From a virus, in IMG/VR virus record IMGVR_UViG_3300029267_002792: DNA of 64,000 nt; one strand, 5' to 3'. The position numbers and the translations under genes were made by a program. Below the pieces are notes generated by a model. The model made no database searches. It was given only the letters and a program-made list of their open reading frames with translations, and had not been told where the DNA came from. Position 1 is the first letter of the stretch, and every line of letters begins with the position of its first letter. Positions 12,703 through 63,427 of the stretch are shown here, in pieces.

Positions 12703-12742
12703 CCCCTGAAACCTACCATCTCGGAGGGTTGTACTACAAGGG

Positions 12743-43549: not shown

Positions 43550-44994
43550 CCACCCCCTCGAAGCTCCGCCCTCGCTCGTTCCGCCTGACTCCGATGCACG
43601 GATGCGGTGTACGCAGGACTATCCTCCACATCGGTTGTATTGGCACGACCGGTTGGCTGCCTCGTACCTTCGGATCGAGCAGCATCCACATTCGATTGGA
43701 GCCGCAGATTCGTCGTAAACCCTCCCATCCCTATCGAGTGTGTGACGGCATCCACCCGGTATACCTGGTTATCGAACCGCCTCCCCAACCCGGACAAAGC
43801 CACCATATCCCCAGGAAGTATTGTCGGGTCGCCGATCGTCTCCAGCTCACACTGCAGACTCATCGCTGCCCCAGTACGAACCTCAGCTTCGGCCCTCGCC
43901 ACAGCATCCGGGTTATCCGGATCACCGGGAACCTGATTCGGGACGTCCGGAAGCTCATCAGTCGCGGTCAGTGTCTGCCCTCCCTCTCCGCTATCCACCG
44001 GCTCATCCGTCTGCTCCAGTGTGATGATCTCTTCCGACGGCTCAACGCTATCCGGATCAACACTTCGGAGGGCAGCCCCATGGTTGAGGACATCTTGGTA
44101 CGTCAGCGCATTCCAAACGGCTTCGGTGTTGCACGAAAAAGACAAAATAGGTAGCTCCACCTCGGATAGCTGTCCAGCCTGTAGTTGTAGACCGCCAACG
44201 CCCTGCAACCTCCCTCCCGGATAGTGGTAAAGCCTGAACCTGCGAGTAGGAGGTCGAGAGAACGTGTCCACCCGAGGAAGCCACAGCAAGCGCGAAGCCC
44301 CTCCTGACACACGCGGCCCGACAATGAGCATGAAGCACTGCGTGCGCTCCGCCATCTCCCACAACGCAAACCAGTCCGATCGGCCGCCCTGCACAAACCC
44401 GGCAGCCGACTCATTCAGGTATCTCCCAGCTTCGGACGTCTCAGGCACACTCGAGAAGTCCACCTCTAGCGTTCTCCGCCCTTCCCCTTCCCCAGCTACC
44501 AATCTCCGTATGAGGTTCTTTCGGGTCTCTCCTCGACCCGGCGTTATACGCCCGGGTTGCCGTTGAGCCTGACTACCTAACCCTTGACCCTTCAGGTTGA
44601 TCTGCACGTCAACGTCTATCGAGACCTCAGGAGCAACCAAGGCCACTGCATATGGAGGCGATAGGAGCGCTCCTCCGTCGCTTGTACCTCCGGTGTACCC
44701 GAGCTGGACTTCGAGGCGGTTCGTCAAACGTCCGTCCGCAAGTGGAGAGTCCAAAAACTTCATCCCGTCCTCAAACGGAGGGCTCAACTGAGCCGACACC
44801 TTAGGTAGGCCCGAGAGGTTCATCTCCACTTGCACTTCCTGCAGAAAGGACAACGCTTGCAAACTCTTCTGCCCGGGCACAGCAGGAAGACCAATCTCAG
44901 CTCCCCCTGTATTCGTCCAGAGCGGGTACGCATCCCCACTCGGAAGAATGATCCGAGCCGCTACAAACGGAGCCGAGAAGTCGAAAGTTGGCAC
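43546..44994 (-). CDS. Baseplate hub (gp27/gpD-like)
   Basis: LEVQLGY; QSDW..L..MAER; TIGDPTILPG.MV.L.GLG.RF...Y.V..VTH....GFTT.L. Confidence 0.75.
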   Translation of the reverse strand: MPTFDFSAPFVAARIILPSGDAYPLWTNTGGAEIGLPAVPGQKSLQALSFLQEVQVEMNLSGLPKVSAQLSPPFEDGMKFLDSPLADGRLTNRLEVQLGYTGGTSDGGALLSPPYAVALVAPEVSIDVDVQINLKGQGLGSQAQRQPGRITPGRGETRKNLIRRLVAGEGEGRRTLEVDFSSVPETSEAGRYLNESAAGFVQGGRSDWFALWEMAERTQCFMLIVGPRVSGGASRLLWLPRVDTFSRPPTRRFRLYHYPGGRLQGVGGLQLQAGQLSEVELPILSFSCNTEAVWNALTYQDVLNHGAALRSVDPDSVEPSEEIITLEQTDEPVDSGEGGQTLTATDELPDVPNQVPGDPDNPDAVARAEAEVRTGAAMSLQCELETIGDPTILPGDMVALSGLGRRFDNQVYRVDAVTHSIGMGGFTTNLRLQSNVDAARSEGTRQPTGRANTTDVEDSPAYTASVHRSQAERARAELRGGG

Positions 44995-50748: not shown

Positions 50749-50816
50749 TTCCTCCACTACTGCAATTCTTAGGTAAACCTACTCACACGCCGACGACCCC
50801 GAAAGGGATCTCGGAC

Positions 50817-51002: not shown

Positions 51003-51788
51003 CTACCTCGCAGTTACGCCGCCTACAGCGTCAGCAATCGCAATACCCATAGCCACTGGAGCCGCCTCACTACCGAGCGACAGCTCGTCCCAAGATTCAA
51101 CGGCAATCTCTAACTCCTGGATCGAGATCGACCCGTCAGATGCGTCGAAATCGCCAGCTGCCTTGTATCGGGCCGGAACGCAACCGTAGAGAACCCACGC
51201 CTTGGCAGGGAGTCGCGGAGCGAACTCAAAAGGCCCAAGGGGTGCCCCGGCAGCAGACGACGCTATTGATTGCGCCTGAGCCGCAGAACCGGCCAAAAAA
51301 GCCGTCGAGGCTAGAGACGAGGGACTTCCTACCAGCGCCGTCGCCGTCCCTTGTAGAGCCAGTACACCGGCCGCAGCCGCCAATCCCTGTGCCGCCCCCG
51401 CCGGAATCGGGTTCCTGGACATAAAATGCACCAGGAGCAGGTCTCTTCGAGGCGTTGCACCACCCAGCGCTGTAGCGTGGAGCGGCCCCCTTCCACCAGT
51501 GTTACCTGCTAACGCAGCCAGAACCCACCGATAGAAGTCACTGTCGTACCACTTCGAGGCCCGCGACAATGTCATGTTCGAGGCGTCGCCGCCTTTCACG
51601 ACCTTGCGCTTGAAAAACCAGTTGGCCTCGGTAATCTCTGTGATCTCGACATTCACCTCAGGGGCCGTGATCGAGGAGAAACCGAGAAGCGGGGAAAAGA
51701 GAGGAAGGGCCAAAGGTTCGATCGGCGCGATATCCATCAACCAGAACGGATAGTTCTGCAGGTAGTCAGTCAGCGAGCTTCTGGCCAC
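51003..51788 (-). CDS. Second gp19-fold tail tube protein with an Ala/Gly-rich insertion
   Basis: DYLQNYPF..GFSSITAPEV.VE..EITE..; W.L.GC.P.RYK.AGDFDA....ISI.ELEIA.E aligns with the main tube protein. Confidence 0.75.
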   Translation of the reverse strand: MARSSLTDYLQNYPFWLMDIAPIEPLALPLFSPLLGFSSITAPEVNVEITEITEANWFFKRKVVKGGDASNMTLSRASKWYDSDFYRWVLAALAGNTGGRGPLHATALGGATPRRDLLLVHFMSRNPIPAGAAQGLAAAAGVLALQGTATALVGSPSSLASTAFLAGSAAQAQSIASSAAGAPLGPFEFAPRLPAKAWVLYGCVPARYKAAGDFDASDGSISIQELEIAVESWDELSLGSEAAPVAMGIAIADAVGGVTAR

Positions 51789-51835
51789 GGTTCAACCCGA
51801 TCCAATCAATCAACTCTTAGGTAACGCCCCGCGCG

Positions 51836-51872
51836 AAAAAGGCCGCAAGCCGCGTGAACGCGACCTACGGCC
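51836..51872 (-). terminator. Intrinsic terminator after the tail tube gene
   Basis: 14-bp stem GGCCGTAGGTCGCG-TTCA-CGCGGCTTGCGGCC followed by TTTTT. Confidence 0.75.
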
Positions 51873-51877
51873 CTCTT

Positions 51878-52414
51878 CTACGCCGCAGCGTTGACGATCA
51901 GCTCGTAGTACTCCAGCTCCAAGTCGAGTTCCATGATGGAGATTTCCGACGCCGTGGCATCCAGGTCACCTGCCACCTTGTACCGGGCCGGGAACGCCTC
52001 ATGGACCAAATAGGTCCGCTGGGCGTCCACCTCCGTCGGGATCGCCGTCAGGTTGCCCTCTGTACTTCCTGTGAGCGCTTCCTCCCGGTGGTAGTGCTTG
52101 ATCCGCACATCCTCCCGATAGTTCCCAGCGCCCTCCATGACCGTCTTGGTCCACTTCCAGAAAGCTTGGTCGGTGATCGCCACCCCTCGAGAAAGCGAGA
52201 TCGGTGCGAAAGTCGTGTTCCCCGGCTGCTTGCGGGTGTAGATGTACGTACCTTCCTTGTACTCTACCGCCTCGATCGTAGCCTCAGGAACCGAACACAT
52301 CGAGAAGCCCGCCTGCGGGGGGCCGAGACGTTCCTCGGCCGCCACCTCTCCGCTGACAACCTCGACGTGGAAACGCATCGAGTGAAGGAAGTCTTCTGAC
52401 ACTGGCCGAGCCAT
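51878..52414 (-). CDS. gp19: Tail tube protein (T4 gp19-like)
   Basis: DFLHSMRFHVEV..AGFS.CS.PE..IE.VEYKEG..RK.PG.TTF..ISL.RG..; AFP.RY..GDLDA. Confidence 0.9.
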   Translation of the reverse strand: MARPVSEDFLHSMRFHVEVVSGEVAAEERLGPPQAGFSMCSVPEATIEAVEYKEGTYIYTRKQPGNTTFAPISLSRGVAITDQAFWKWTKTVMEGAGNYREDVRIKHYHREEALTGSTEGNLTAIPTEVDAQRTYLVHEAFPARYKVAGDLDATASEISIMELDLELEYYELIVNAAA

Positions 52415-52434
52415 GTAACAGCCTCCGTCCCTGG

Positions 52435-52501
52435 TCCCGCCGCAGCGAGTTCCCGTCAAAGACGGGCGAGGTCAAAAACCTCTGCCGGAAGGGCTTCCGG
52501 T
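52435..52501 (-). ncRNA. Four-hairpin structured 5' leader, tube copy
   Basis: ACCGG-N8-CCGG CA GAGGT/ACCTC G CCCGTC/GACGGG AA CTCGC/GCGGG, then GGAGG. Confidence 0.7.
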
Positions 52502-52543
52502 CGTTATTCCAAACCTACAACAGCCGAGCTACCAACCGCAAGC

Positions 52544-53615: not shown

Positions 53616-56195
53616 CTATGAATCCAAGGTTTTCTGCTGAAAGCGGAATCGGATAAATTCTGCAGGCTTGTTCGGAGCAATCCCGACGTCAATGATCACC
53701 TGACCAGCGTCGATCGACGCCTGGCTGTTGTTGGACTCGTCCACCGTGACAAAGAACGCCTGGGAGGGCGTCGTTCCGGCGAATAGGCCATCGTTGAAGA
53801 GATTGGTGAGGAATGCCTGGAGCTGCGCCTTGATCCGCGCCCAGAGCCCCGAACCATTGTTCTCGAAGACGATCCAGTGCGTCGAGTTGTACACGGACTT
53901 CTCGACGAACATGAACAGACGCCGGGCGTTGATGTACCGCCACTCGGACTGCAACGACAGCGTCCGAGCACCCCAGACAGCGAGGCCGGTCTGCGGTCCG
54001 GACACGAGGGGGTTGATCCTCGCGGGGTAAACCGTGTCGCGCTCCCCCTGGCTGATCGAGTCGATCTCCAGGCCAGAGAGGAAACTCAGCGCGCCATCCA
54101 CCGTCCCTGCCGGGACCTTGCCCACGTTTCGGTTCGTGTCCGTGCGAGCATAGATGCCTGCCAAATGTCCAAGAGGTGGGAACACGACCGGACGGTTGTC
54201 CGCCAACGGGTCCGCAACCTTCACCCACGGCCAGTAGATAGCCGCGAACTTGGAGTACTGCCCCACGTCGAGCCGCACGAAGTCCACCGCCTCCTGCGCC
54301 GACGAGCCCTGCGGCACCATGAGGATGGCAAAGCGATCACCACCAGAAGGGAGTGTCTCGCGGCTGTCCACATAGTCGAGCAGGTCCTTCGTGATCTGCA
54401 CGTCCCCTGCGAAATCGGGGATGATCACCTGCATCAGCTCTTCGATCTTGTTCAAGGCGTACAGGCCCTGGAAGTTTGGCTCCAAGGTGATCGCCGTGAA
54501 CTGGCTCCGACCGTAGTTGGTAGCGTCAAAGGTGCCGTCCGCACCCCCTGCGAACCCATCTAGGTGGCTGTCCTCCTCGGAAACCGACCGATACGTCGCA
54601 GACACGAGCTGATCCTGATCAATCGCATTCGACAGAAGCACGTCGATCGCGCCCGTGGTGTAGTCGATGGTGTTGTTCCCGGCGGCGTCCACATCACCGA
54701 TCAGGTTCCCTGAACCATCGTCCGTGATGGTCCGGGTCGTGCTCGTGGTGTCAGTCCAAGACAGACTGAACGAACGAGGAACGAGTGGGACGTCGAGGAG
54801 CGTGGTCGCGATAGCTCGATTCGCAGCCAACTCGTCGCCGGCAGCGACGACCTGACTCCGAGACTCACCATTGAGCTGCTGCGGCCCCTCAGCGTTGAGT
54901 GCTGGCTCAACCACGTTCACGAGGTCGGACAAGTCATTGAGCACATCGGGGAAGTACTGCGCCGAAGTCGCGTCCGTAAACGTGATCTCCTCGTAGGTCT
55001 CCTTGATGTCGTAGAGATTGGTCAACGAGTTGAGTAGCCGGACGTTGATGTTGAAGCGGGTGTAGGTATCAGTCGCAACCGTGTAGTAGTCGTCGTTCCC
55101 GATCACCTCAATCCGCATGTCGTTAGCCCACGCACCGACCGAGATCGGATCGATGTCCCAGGCCTGAATGTCGTAGTCACAGAGAACCGGGCAAGCCGTT
55201 CCGGGCTCGTACCCAGCCGCCGTGGTGAACGTGTAGTTACCAGCCGTGGCTCCCACGTAGTCGACGGAGCCCGCCGCAGTGAGGATCGGCCCGACGTCGG
55301 GGATGGCACCGCTGCCGTCGTCGGAGATTGACCGTACGTCCGTGCCGGGCGTGTAGTCGAGGGTGATGTTGGTCCCGTCTCCAGCGAGCACCGGAACCTC
55401 GGTACCGCCAAAGGTGACGACGAGGAATCCGGAAATGAGATCGAGAGTGGCCACCGTGCCTTGCGCGGATGTCCCGCTCGCGCGCATGGTCGTGCCGACC
55501 TGCGTCAGGTTGAGGGTCGTCGGCGTGGCACCATCCGGGTCCCAATTCAGGGTGATAGTGCCACCAGGAATGATGCTTGGAAGAGCCGAATCGACACCGT
55601 CAGAAGGCATCGACGTAACAACGCGGCCCTCGTAATGGTGACTCGGGTGCCCAACGGAATCCTGGACAAGCGCGGTCACACCGTCCCGCTCGAACAGGTT
55701 CTCAGTCGCTACCGGAGTATCATCCGAACGCCACCGGAAGGTGACACCAGCCGAACCCGGCTCCGCCACAAGGTCCGTGATCAGGGCAACCGGCGTGAGC
55801 ACGGCCTGAGTGACCGTCGCCGTGGCACCATCACCGGTGTTGCATTGGAAATCTCTCCGAGCACTGGTGACCTGACCTTTGTCGTAAGCCGAGGGAGCAC
55901 CCGACTGGTCGGTCCCGGCCTCCACCGCGTCTCCGGGCATCACCCGGACGACATAGGCTCGGCGTCCACCATTGGCGAAGAACGCGGCCATGGAGAGACC
56001 GGTTCTTGACTCCGCAATGAGATCGCCGAAGATGCTGATGAATTGTCCGAACGAGGTGACCAGGATCGCTTCGTCCGTAGGTCCTCGCTGAGTTGCTCCA
56101 ACGATGCCCAAGTTCGACGTGGAAACCGGCTGCACGACCTGGACGGCACTCGGCACCTCTTCTACGAACACACCGGGCGATAGTATTTCGGCCAT
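53616..56195 (-). CDS. gp18: Tail sheath protein (T4 gp18-like, 859 aa)
   Basis: LSPGVFVEEV..GPTDE..LVTSF; C-terminal A.YWPW..PP.GH.AG.YARTD..ERD..YP..INP..WGARTL..YINARRLF..KPAEFI. Confidence 0.97.
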   Translation of the reverse strand: MAEILSPGVFVEEVPSAVQVVQPVSTSNLGIVGATQRGPTDEAILVTSFGQFISIFGDLIAESRTGLSMAAFFANGGRRAYVVRVMPGDAVEAGTDQSGAPSAYDKGQVTSARRDFQCNTGDGATATVTQAVLTPVALITDLVAEPGSAGVTFRWRSDDTPVATENLFERDGVTALVQDSVGHPSHHYEGRVVTSMPSDGVDSALPSIIPGGTITLNWDPDGATPTTLNLTQVGTTMRASGTSAQGTVATLDLISGFLVVTFGGTEVPVLAGDGTNITLDYTPGTDVRSISDDGSGAIPDVGPILTAAGSVDYVGATAGNYTFTTAAGYEPGTACPVLCDYDIQAWDIDPISVGAWANDMRIEVIGNDDYYTVATDTYTRFNINVRLLNSLTNLYDIKETYEEITFTDATSAQYFPDVLNDLSDLVNVVEPALNAEGPQQLNGESRSQVVAAGDELAANRAIATTLLDVPLVPRSFSLSWTDTTSTTRTITDDGSGNLIGDVDAAGNNTIDYTTGAIDVLLSNAIDQDQLVSATYRSVSEEDSHLDGFAGGADGTFDATNYGRSQFTAITLEPNFQGLYALNKIEELMQVIIPDFAGDVQITKDLLDYVDSRETLPSGGDRFAILMVPQGSSAQEAVDFVRLDVGQYSKFAAIYWPWVKVADPLADNRPVVFPPLGHLAGIYARTDTNRNVGKVPAGTVDGALSFLSGLEIDSISQGERDTVYPARINPLVSGPQTGLAVWGARTLSLQSEWRYINARRLFMFVEKSVYNSTHWIVFENNGSGLWARIKAQLQAFLTNLFNDGLFAGTTPSQAFFVTVDESNNSQASIDAGQVIIDVGIAPNKPAEFIRFRFQQKTLDS

Positions 56196-56220
56196 TGCCT
56201 AGTCCCTCCTAAGGGTCCAT

Positions 56221-56290
56221 CCCCGCATACTGCGAGTTCCCGCCACGTCGGACGAGCAGGCCTTGCGACCTTGCCGGCTGGAACACCGGT
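56221..56290 (-). ncRNA. Four-hairpin structured 5' leader, sheath copy
   Basis: ACCGG-N8-CCGG CA AGGTC-GCAA-GGCCT G CTCGTC/GGCGGG AA CTCGCA/TGCGGG, then GGAGG. Confidence 0.65.
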
Positions 56291-56325
56291 ACTAAGTTTT
56301 CAACACCACACCACCGGCGTGGTAG

Positions 56326-56700
56326 TTACTCCGACCCTTCGATCGCTTCCAGGATCTCCACCTTAGTCCAACTTGATGAGATCTCCAACCCCTTGGCCTG
56401 AGCATACTCGACAAGCCTGGCTTTTTTCCACTCCATGGTTGGAGACTCTACCGGTACAGGCTGCGATTGAGGTTTCACCGGAACCTGTACCTCCGGTACC
56501 GCCGGTGTTGGAGCCGGAACCGCCGCCGGCTTATCAGGGAGCCTGACAAGCAGATTCTTTCGCACACGAGAAAGGATGCTGGCCGATCGATCTTGTTCAG
56601 GTGTTACCGTGAGCACCTGCTTGGGAGCGACGATCGCCGACTCTCCGTTCCTCAGAGATACTGTGACAGGTCCACGAGTTCGATTGAAATACCTTGCCAT
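56326..56700 (-). CDS. Small protein with C-terminal HeH/Rho-N-like helical motif; paralog of 60655-61029
   Basis: PTMEWKKARLVEYAQAKGL....TKVEILEAI. Confidence 0.7.
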   Translation of the reverse strand: MARYFNRTRGPVTVSLRNGESAIVAPKQVLTVTPEQDRSASILSRVRKNLLVRLPDKPAAVPAPTPAVPEVQVPVKPQSQPVPVESPTMEWKKARLVEYAQAKGLEISSSWTKVEILEAIEGSE

Positions 56701-61798: not shown

Positions 61799-63289
61799 TT
61801 ACAGGTTATTCACGGTCAGCTGGCCATAAAAATCTGGCCGAAGCAGCTTCTTGGCGTACCGCGTGCGGAGACCCTTGCGGAAGCTGAAGTCCGATGGATC
61901 GAGGAAGGTCGGAGTGACCTGGAGTGGCACGTAGGGAGCCCAAACGAAGCCGCTCTCCAAGAAGGAGCCGCCCTTCAACCCGATCATCATCTTGTTGGTC
62001 GTGAAGAAGGGGTCTTCGTAAACGGTCCACTTGTTCATGAGCGTTCCGGTCTTGTAGATGGAGAACTGACCGTGGCTCGTCCTGGGCCGCATCATGATGT
62101 CGGTGGGCGAGTTCGGGTTCATGTCTCCCGACCAGATCGGCTTGAAGTCACCGTGTGTGGTCAGCTGGGTCAAGAGCGCCGAAATCTCGGGGCTCGTGAC
62201 GATCCAGTTGGCAGGCGCGCGGAGCGTCTTCTTGTGGATGAGATTCGAGACCGTGCTGATCTGCGTGATCATGGCACGCAAGTGGTCGATCTCGGAGATG
62301 CCACCCGGAGGGATGCGATCGAAGGTACCAGTCGTCCCGGTCGAGTTCAGGAACAGGTCCTGAATGATCTCACGGTCGATTTCCAGCGCAATCTCCTGCG
62401 CGATGATCGACACGATCTCGGTCTCGGCGTCGAGGCCGTGGAAAGCTCGGAGATCCTCCGCCGCCTCGGACGACCACAGGGCCTTGAGCCGACGCGGCTT
62501 GGCCTCCACGGGGGACTTCTTGACGTCGAGCTTGACCTCGGGGACCTTCGTGTTCAGCTCGCCGTCGAAGTAGTAGTACGCCTTGACCTGGTTGCCGGTG
62601 GCCGGCGGGTTCGTGAACAGGAAGCCGGTGATGGCACCGTTCGAGTAATTGATCGTGCCCGCAGTGACAGCACCAGTGAAACCACCGGACCCGTCGTCGG
62701 TGGCTTCCTGCACGGTCGCGCCAGCCGAAGACACCTCGCGAACGATGCACGAAAACCCACGAGTCGCGTCCAGTGGTCGAACTGGCGTCCAGGCGAGGTC
62801 GGCATCGAGCGGGGTGCCCGCACCACCGTAGTTGACGTTGTCTCCCGTGACCAGCGGTTCGCCGTTGACATACTCACTGGAGTAGTCCCGATCGAAATCC
62901 CGAGGGAAGACCGCACCCTCGGTCGTGCCGCCCTTGGTGGAGCCGTACACGTAATCTAGGAAGAAAACCGCGCCGATCGGAGCGGTCATCGGCTGGACGC
63001 TGACGATCTCGTTCGCGATCAGGTTGGGGAAAACTCTCCTCAACACCGGGAAAATGAACTTGGTGAACGAGCCGACGTTGACGGTCCTTGTCTCCTCCGT
63101 GAGAGACTGGAGCCACAGGGACTCGTTCTCCATGAGCATGGCCGTACACCCGAGGATGTACCGATCCTGCTCTGAATAGTCGGCGAGGCCCTCCAGGAAG
63201 TCTCCCCACTTCCGAATCAAGGCCCCGACGTAGCTCTGGTCGGCGATGGTTTGACGACCTTCTTCTTGAAGCATCTGTCGAGCTTCCAC
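61799..63289 (-). CDS. gp23: Major capsid protein (T4 gp23-like)
   Basis: FPVLRRVFPNLIANEIVSVQPMTAPIGAVFFLDY..RRLKALWSSEAAEDL..EIDREI..YVPLQ..F..RKGL.TRY. Confidence 0.98.
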   Translation of the reverse strand: MEARQMLQEEGRQTIADQSYVGALIRKWGDFLEGLADYSEQDRYILGCTAMLMENESLWLQSLTEETRTVNVGSFTKFIFPVLRRVFPNLIANEIVSVQPMTAPIGAVFFLDYVYGSTKGGTTEGAVFPRDFDRDYSSEYVNGEPLVTGDNVNYGGAGTPLDADLAWTPVRPLDATRGFSCIVREVSSAGATVQEATDDGSGGFTGAVTAGTINYSNGAITGFLFTNPPATGNQVKAYYYFDGELNTKVPEVKLDVKKSPVEAKPRRLKALWSSEAAEDLRAFHGLDAETEIVSIIAQEIALEIDREIIQDLFLNSTGTTGTFDRIPPGGISEIDHLRAMITQISTVSNLIHKKTLRAPANWIVTSPEISALLTQLTTHGDFKPIWSGDMNPNSPTDIMMRPRTSHGQFSIYKTGTLMNKWTVYEDPFFTTNKMMIGLKGGSFLESGFVWAPYVPLQVTPTFLDPSDFSFRKGLRTRYAKKLLRPDFYGQLTVNNL

Positions 63290-63308
63290 GGTTTGCCTCC
63301 GCCCCGAG

Positions 63309-63374
63309 TCCCGCTCTCACGGGTTCCTGTGTTCAACAGGCGAGGTGTCAACCTCTGCCGGTCGGGTATCCGGT
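63309..63374 (-). ncRNA. Four-hairpin structured 5' leader, capsid copy
   Basis: ACCGG-N8-CCGG CA GAGGT/ACCTC G CCTGT/ACAGG AA CCCGT-GAGA-GCGGG, then GGAGG. Confidence 0.7.
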
Positions 63375-63427
63375 CTGCTAGATCATTCTGTCACGGCGGA
63401 GCGTCGTTGCCCGCCAGAATCTCCCAC

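Follow-up and report, generated by a model that had tools for sequence, protein, structure and literature searches.

The major capsid, tail sheath and tail tube genes of a T4-like phage were each preceded by a copy of one four-hairpin leader, which is a real, selected, structured RNA of the sense strand. The three copies were located directly upstream of the Shine-Dalgarno (SD) sequences of these genes and shared one orientation (Table 1). The element belongs to a known kind, the cis-acting structured mRNA leaders; the mechanism that we infer for it is developed below.

Genome context and distribution of the element

The window (the whole stretch of 64,000 nucleotides analysed) corresponds to positions 37461-101460, read on the minus strand, of an IMG/VR viral contig of 109,107 bp whose completeness was estimated at about 69%. 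The same phage was also present as a 193,864-bp JGI contig, the IMG/VR record being a 109-kb part of the phage genome. Nearly all the genes of the window were on its minus strand.

The 19-nt word ACCGG-N8-CCGGCA was present exactly three times in the 109,107-bp contig, and all three occurrences were in the window and on the coding strand (positions 63374, 56290 and 52501), and the reversed pattern, used as a control, had no occurrences in the contig. The earlier note on this DNA had described the copy at 63309-63374 (minus strand) and aligned it with the leaders of sheath and tube; the three sequences were as it had transcribed them. A covariance model (R1) built from the three copies scored 87.4 bits for tube, 78.6 for capsid and 67.2 for sheath; these copies match by construction, and the informative part is the gap to the background. 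The next best match in the 109-kb contig reached only 11 bits and was within coding sequence, in agreement with the previous observation that no other gene of the window carries a copy.

Table 1. Position of the element copies, their hairpins, the associated genes and the neighbouring signals (window coordinates).
Feature	Position	Strand	Remarks
Capsid copy	63301-63377	-	Whole 77-nt segment that relatives are without; four-hairpin minimum-energy structure
Capsid P1	63373-63370 with 63361-63358	-	
Capsid L1 (8-nt loop)	63369-63362	-	
Capsid P2	63355-63351 with 63346-63342	-	
Capsid P3	63340-63336 with 63330-63326	-	
Capsid P4	63323-63319 with 63314-63310	-	
Capsid tail	63309-63301	-	
Candidate pseudoknot 3' strand, capsid (UCGGG)	63303-63307	-	With L1 CCCGA 63366-63362; 2 nt upstream of SD
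Capsid SD and start	63287-63300	-	GGAGG 63300-63296, GTG 63289-63287; kept in relatives
Major capsid protein gene, gp23-type	61799-63289	-	496 aa; Pfam PF07068, 1.5e-73
Sheath copy	56211-56293	-	83-nt phage-specific segment; relatives have about 23 nt with a small hairpin instead
Sheath P1	56289-56286 with 56277-56274	-	
Sheath P2	56271-56267 with 56262-56258	-	
Sheath P3	56256-56251 with 56244-56239	-	
Sheath P4	56236-56231 with 56227-56222	-	
Candidate pseudoknot 3' strand, sheath (UGGA)	56216-56219	-	With L1 UCCA 56282-56279; 5 nt upstream of SD
Sheath SD (AGGAGG)	56210-56205	-	
Tail sheath gene	53616-56195	-	859 aa; PF17482, PF04984; PHROG tail sheath, 4e-54
Tube copy	52427-52503	-	77-nt segment that relatives are without
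Tube P1	52500-52497 with 52488-52485	-	
Tube P2	52482-52478 with 52472-52468	-	
Tube P3	52466-52461 with 52457-52452	-	
Tube P4	52449-52445 with 52440-52436	-	
Candidate pseudoknot 3' strand, tube (AGGG)	52429-52432	-	With L1 CCCU 52493-52490; 2 nt upstream of SD
Tube SD (GGAGG)	52426-52422	-	
Tail tube gene, gp19-type	51878-52414	-	178 aa; PF06841, 9e-22
Candidate pseudoknot, S1			P1, 4 bp
Candidate pseudoknot, loop 1			3 nt
Candidate pseudoknot, S2			L1-tail, 4-5 bp
Candidate pseudoknot, loop 2			0-1 nt
Candidate pseudoknot, loop 3			Long; holds P2-P4
Intrinsic terminator	51835-51878	-	Directly after tube gene; 20-bp stem including A/U tracts, -37.2 kcal/mol, z=-5.9
Older hairpin (GGCGGG ... 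CCGCC)	63395-63415	-	Between scaffold-like upstream gene and capsid copy; kept in element-free relatives
GTAGGTTT motif	52511-52518	-	10 nt upstream of tube copy; directly upstream of SD in relatives

The earlier note had not recognised the motif, and a comparison with the 4227 models of Rfam 15 led to the same result: the window had no match at the gathering thresholds, and the elements had none even at E<=10. No tRNA or tmRNA genes were predicted in the window by ARAGORN. Pattern scans of IMG/VR and GTDB gave only chance single matches after rescoring by model or regular expression, as did, among the matches listed, the scan of metagenome contigs; blastn of the tube copy against cultured phages returned only fragments at E>=3. 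Beyond this contig, the element was found only in other assemblies of the same phage, where its copies were identical. For now, the motif appears to be an orphan, and new as an RNA motif.

Fold of the element and selection on its helices

All three copies shared the same layout: P1, the linker CA, P2, the linker G, P3, the linker AA, P4 and then a gap to the SD. Several details proposed previously were borne out: the linkers were invariant (5/5 linker columns, 3/3 copies), the gaps from P4 to the SD were 9, 9 and 11 nt, within the 9-12 nt proposed, and two of the loops were GNRA tetraloops (GAGA in the capsid copy and GCAA in the sheath copy). The tube copy carried a UNCG-type loop (UGCG). P3 and P4 were near-identical tandem hairpins (CYCGY ... 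RCGGG) with AA between them. The four hairpins were the minimum-energy structure of the isolated core of each copy (3/3); with flanks, the folding energies were no better than those of dinucleotide shuffles (z = -0.9, -0.8 and 0.0), and thermodynamics alone is therefore unpersuasive. The predicted accessibility of the SD, from an equilibrium calculation, was inconsistent across the copies (0.77, 0.21 and 0.31) and uninformative.

Conservation was distributed unevenly over the element. Invariant columns amounted to 27/42 in stems and 5/5 in linkers, but only to 2/22 in loops (Fisher test of stems vs. loops, p=1.9e-5, from three copies), and the pairwise identity among copies was 66-83% in stems and 22-24%, equal to random, in loops. 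Fourfold degenerate sites were only 38-60% identical between the phage and its nearest relatives, a divergence that gave neutral positions time to become random, with the stems retained over the same period; random loops beside conserved stems imply purifying selection on the helices. The strand was also marked: the eight stem pairs outside Watson-Crick were all G-U on the coding strand and none was A-C (binomial p=0.004), so the fold belongs to the sense strand, as had been proposed from wobble pairs that work only in the transcript.

The earlier note had also held that the stems covary while the loops diverge. The divergence of the loops was evident from the counts above, but covariation had been overstated: both sides had changed in only 2/21 pairs, and the observed covariation score was reached by 101 of 500 shuffles (three related copies). 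Formal covariation of P1-P4 from three sequences is thus a weak signal, and stem conservation against loop divergence, together with the strand asymmetry, are the stronger ones.

Candidate pseudoknot between the first loop and the tail

Loop L1 probably forms an H-type pseudoknot with the tail that precedes the SD. L1 was 8 nt long in 3/3 copies, while the other loops differed in length, and its positions 4-7(8) were complementary to the tail right after P4, in the same register in all copies. The putative pairs included compensatory changes between capsid, tube and sheath, respectively: G-C, U-A and A-U at L1 position 7, and C-G, C-G and U-A at position 4. For the capsid copy with flanks, the minimum-energy structure included the L1-tail pairing. 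In the tube copy, P1 could be extended by two A-U pairs, which would compete with the pseudoknot.

Shuffled loops and tails reached at least 4 bp in all three copies in 9.6e-4 of the trials, or in 6.5e-5 when one loop register was required; both values are too optimistic, since the copies are homologous, a central CC/GG is common to them, and they were treated as independent. A conservative estimate, using the variable positions only and allowing for the choice of register, was 1e-3 to 1e-2. The SD is outside the candidate pseudoknot, the 3' strand of S2 ending 2-5 nt upstream of it.

Insertion of the element in one lineage

The leader is not a conserved feature of this phage group: it was absent at the three sites from every relative found. 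At the capsid site, none of 79 IMG/VR loci (25-96% identity in the best aligned segment) carried the element. At the tube and sheath sites, it was absent from 16 tube loci with 5-kb flanks, from three large relative contigs (sheath 81-88% and tube 76-80% identical in global alignment) and from three relatives with an 82% identical tube protein, retrieved from a set of 5.8 billion proteins. Protein identity between the phage and relatives without the element was 76-92%. In the 5.8-billion-protein set, the nearest distinct tube protein was the one at 82%, and tube proteins of closer strains (90-99% identical) were not found; the identical tube protein, with identical elements, was present in L561 (JGI 3300029258, 193,864 bp), L562 (Logan SRR14699969) and several other assemblies.

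The capsid site aligned with four relatives showed one clean gap of 77 columns. Both flanks were kept in the closest relatives: upstream, the hairpin GGCGGG...CCGCC and then a short spacer; downstream, GGAGGCAA, 2-3 nt and the GTG start. At the tube site, relatives had GTAGGTTTG...TAA followed at once by the SD, and the phage had a 77-nt extra segment between them. The capsid and tube insertions were thus both exactly 77 nt, between conserved flanks; at the sheath site an 83-nt segment was found in place of about 23 nt. Gain in one lineage is parsimonious because the outgroups were also without the element, and the alignments accordingly favour a lineage-private insertion, gained rather than ancestral.

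Proposed mechanism and alternative explanations

The earlier note had suggested a cis-regulatory RNA that coordinates or boosts expression of the most abundant structural proteins. A sense-strand, cis-acting leader is upheld by the conservation of stems and linkers, the G-U asymmetry, the orientation and the SD-adjacent position; the effect on expression is kept conditional here. The last of these points is uninformative taken alone, because the ancestral leaders were very short and any insertion would adjoin the SD.

The explanation that we prefer, to which we give about an even chance, is that of a structured leader found only in this lineage and kept by selection, which stabilises the mRNA and fixes the setting of the SD, raising and equalising the three virion proteins. 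Its copies, their strand, the hairpins, the pattern of selection and the insertions are established; the pseudoknot, the transcription of the whole element and the stabilising or translational effect are the parts that we infer. A structured RNA module of about 77 nt, read from the coding strand, would make up most of the 5' leader in each of the three mRNAs (capsid, sheath and tube). It would have arisen only in this phage lineage and been inserted on three occasions, each time with the promoter-proximal flank on one side and the SD on the other, with purifying selection acting since then on its helices and junction nucleotides. In the predicted fold, P1 would be S1, three L1 nucleotides would cross to S2 (L1 positions 4-8 with the tail), the third loop would bear P2, P3 and P4, and the structure would end 2-5 nt before the SD. 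If transcription started inside P1, P1 could not form. The action would most likely be post-transcriptional and in cis: the compact knot may shield the 5' end of the mRNA from decay that begins at that end (through RppH with RNase E, or through RNase J) and may also keep the SD in one fixed, context-independent setting, both together raising and equalising the amounts made of the three most abundant virion proteins. Protection of this kind is the established function of 5'-terminal stem-loops in bacterial mRNAs, among them ompA, papA and related cases (cited in PMC3997798). The tube gene appears to form a unit of its own, made up of an AT-richer spacer, the leader, the coding sequence and a very strong terminator.

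Invariant linkers and a fixed hairpin count exceed the needs of a plain stabiliser and point towards a specific partner; with the P3/P4 tandem, they therefore make a shared trans-acting partner the main rival. The element would then be an operator through which a phage or host RNA-binding protein, a small RNA or a riboswitch-type small-molecule ligand switches capsid, sheath and tube translation together, an explanation that we consider rather unlikely. It would account for the invariance of CA, G and AA, for the fixed length of L1, for the tandem of P3 and P4 with AA between, which would suit a duplicated binding site, and for a candidate pseudoknot strand adjoining the SD; however, the loops, which are the usual sites of protein or ligand contact, vary freely (2/22 invariant), the SD is outside the candidate pseudoknot, no riboswitch family of Rfam matched, and in the 109-kb contig a CsrA homologue was absent and a RegA homologue was not found (the latter in a search that had no positive control and is uninformative). 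A processive antitermination or anti-pausing RNA similar to HK022 put, in which the nascent leader binds RNA polymerase and speeds or protects transcription, resembles the element in size, copy pattern and promoter-proximal position (PMC9378689). We give this little credence: the four short hairpins of 4-6 bp contrast with the two long bulged stems of put (PMC9378689), the tube unit consists of one gene with a strong terminator behind it, and this long-stem terminator is found equally in relatives without the element.

A small repeat, selfish or passive, of the MITE, REP or PATE type or resembling the PeSL recombination cassettes, and with no role in expression, would agree with behaviour as an insertion against all relatives, with two copies of exactly 77 nt and with a richness in hairpins like that of the ends of ssDNA transposons. 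It is nonetheless improbable: there were only three copies, in one orientation and all before the three most abundant virion genes; terminal inverted repeats and target duplications were not seen in the alignments with relatives; Y1 transposase (PF01797) was absent from the 109-kb contig, which is part of the genome (positive controls included); scans of IMG/VR, of GTDB and of the metagenome matches listed gave no copies; and the copies are old, with random loops, yet have conserved stems, which argues for selection at the level of the phage and not for recent transposition. An element acting as DNA, for instance as palindromic sites for a regulator of late genes or as a hairpin promoter, is suggested by the invariant CCGG-N8-CCGG dyad and by the AT-richer, promoter-like spacers that the element follows. 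This is highly improbable, as the stem sequences differ between copies with pairing retained, the eight G-U pairs are A-C mismatches on the other strand, and four different palindromes with variable loops are unlike a protein-binding DNA site.

If the stabilising leader is functional, it would be a clear natural case of regulatory innovation by the spread of a module, with one RNA fold before three unlinked late genes, where selection would have maintained it, whereas the relatives get by with leaders of about 10-25 nt. At about 77 nt, the element is also a compact candidate for a part that stabilises or insulates bacterial mRNAs, and the short leaders of the relatives provide a natural contrast for the effect of a structured leader on the yield of capsid, sheath and tube. 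Its scope is narrow, the element being known from one uncultured T4-like phage.

Comparison with known systems

A parallel in position was that of the 5'-terminal stem-loop stabilisers (ompA and papA of E. coli, and Bacillus cases; cited in PMC3997798): a structured sense 5' UTR is placed upstream of the ribosome-binding site and acts in cis on highly expressed genes. The element likewise lies on the sense strand, between a conserved upstream flank and the SD. Unlike the ompA/papA stabilisers, it comprises four hairpins and a possible pseudoknot, with invariant junctions, and is one module repeated at three genes; there is no sequence relation between them.

The putL and putR RNAs of HK022 are about 70 nt long, are located just downstream of promoters, occur as several similar copies in a genome and act in cis with no need of proteins, through two long bulged stems that bind the zinc-binding domain of RNA polymerase (PMC9378689). 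Two long bulged stem-loops in about 70 nt were not found in the element, which, unlike put, is always SD-adjacent and precedes genes whose layout implies no terminator read-through. In T4-type phages, the PeSLs join an early sigma-70 promoter to a terminator stem-loop, and they border variable early genes of the hyperplastic regions (PMC2839356, PMC4122927). Like them, the element is a short, repeated intergenic module marking points of insertion or deletion between close T4-like relatives (PMC2839356, PMC4122927); unlike them, it has four hairpins and is placed before core late structural genes, with no sigma-70 consensus and no U-tract. Neither a composite of promoter and terminator nor hyperplastic flanking was found at the three sites, the capsid, sheath and tube genes being common to all relatives. 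The many copies in both orientations typical of REP, BIME, PATE and MITE elements were not observed either, with three copies in one orientation in 109 kb.

Flavivirus exoribonuclease-resistant RNAs (xrRNAs) are a mechanical obstacle to 5'-3' exonucleases, bacterial RNase J1 among them, and have a multi-helix junction closed by a pseudoknot from a loop to a downstream strand (PMC5760640). The predicted fold of the element resembles them in topology only. Unlike xrRNAs, which are in the 3' UTR, the element is in the 5' leader and has no sequence similarity to them. It is rather unlikely that the element is a self-contained, pseudoknotted expression module new to phages, serving either as a bacterial-virus counterpart of xrRNAs that physically protects the 5' end of the mRNA from RNase J or RNase E or as the sensor of a new regulon operated by a protein or ligand; copying and insertion would then have carried it into the leaders of the three proteins on whose ratio virion assembly depends, giving a small post-transcriptional regulon of this lineage. 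The translational riboswitches of the preQ1-II and SAM-II types have an H-type pseudoknot adjoining the ribosome-binding site, with the SD inside the pseudoknot and loops conserved for the ligand. The candidate pseudoknot of the element also adjoins the ribosome-binding site, but its helix leaves out the SD, which follows 2-5 nt further on; the loops differ freely between copies, and Rfam gave no match.

Neighbouring signals

A sigma-70 scan revealed no promoter-like site at the elements, nor was a terminator-like site found there on the coding strand, the elements being without a U-tract. GAAAACT was rejected as a promoter motif: 14 of its 17 plus-strand occurrences were inside genes, and 14 more were on the other strand.

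The GGCGGG-loop-CCGCC hairpin found ahead of the capsid copy was also present upstream of the capsid genes of relatives L004-L015, L059 and L069, and L012 had compensatory arms (GGTGGG/CCCACC) in its hairpin before the capsid gene. It could act as a terminator or attenuator, or could stabilise the message of the upstream gene at its 3' end. Another hairpin (CCACGCC ... GGUGUGG, 56301-56328, minus strand, -14.3 kcal/mol, z=-2.6) was located ahead of the sheath copy, after the gene that precedes the sheath gene; each of the three copies thus has a hairpin, and then an AT-richer spacer, ahead of it.

An equivalent of the tube terminator was present in relatives without the element, and its interpretation as an antitermination-resistant operon end (PMC10325885), tried here, therefore has no support. 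Right after this terminator, a second, longer gp19-like protein of 261 aa is encoded (51003-51788, minus strand; PF06841 at the C-terminus, 4.9e-10), and its gene is without the four-hairpin leader.

The GTAGGTTT motif (52511-52518, 50775-50782 and 12709-12716, minus strand), a candidate promoter or regulator site, had four occurrences on the coding strand, three of them intergenic; at 50763-50782, GTAGGTTT and an ACCTA core form the dyad TAGGT-TT-ACCTA. The 14-nt motif TTACCTAAGA(G/A)TTG was present at 51811-51824 and 50763-50776 (minus strand), and its core ACCTAAG also at 44800-44806. It was found just past the tube terminator, some 21 nt ahead of the next gene starts, and was equally placed after the tube terminators of relatives G001, G002, G003 and L563, which makes it a candidate for a late promoter or a regulator site. 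In relatives, an ATG follows only 7 nt after TTACCTAAGA(G/A)TTG, and the corresponding mRNAs might be near-leaderless.
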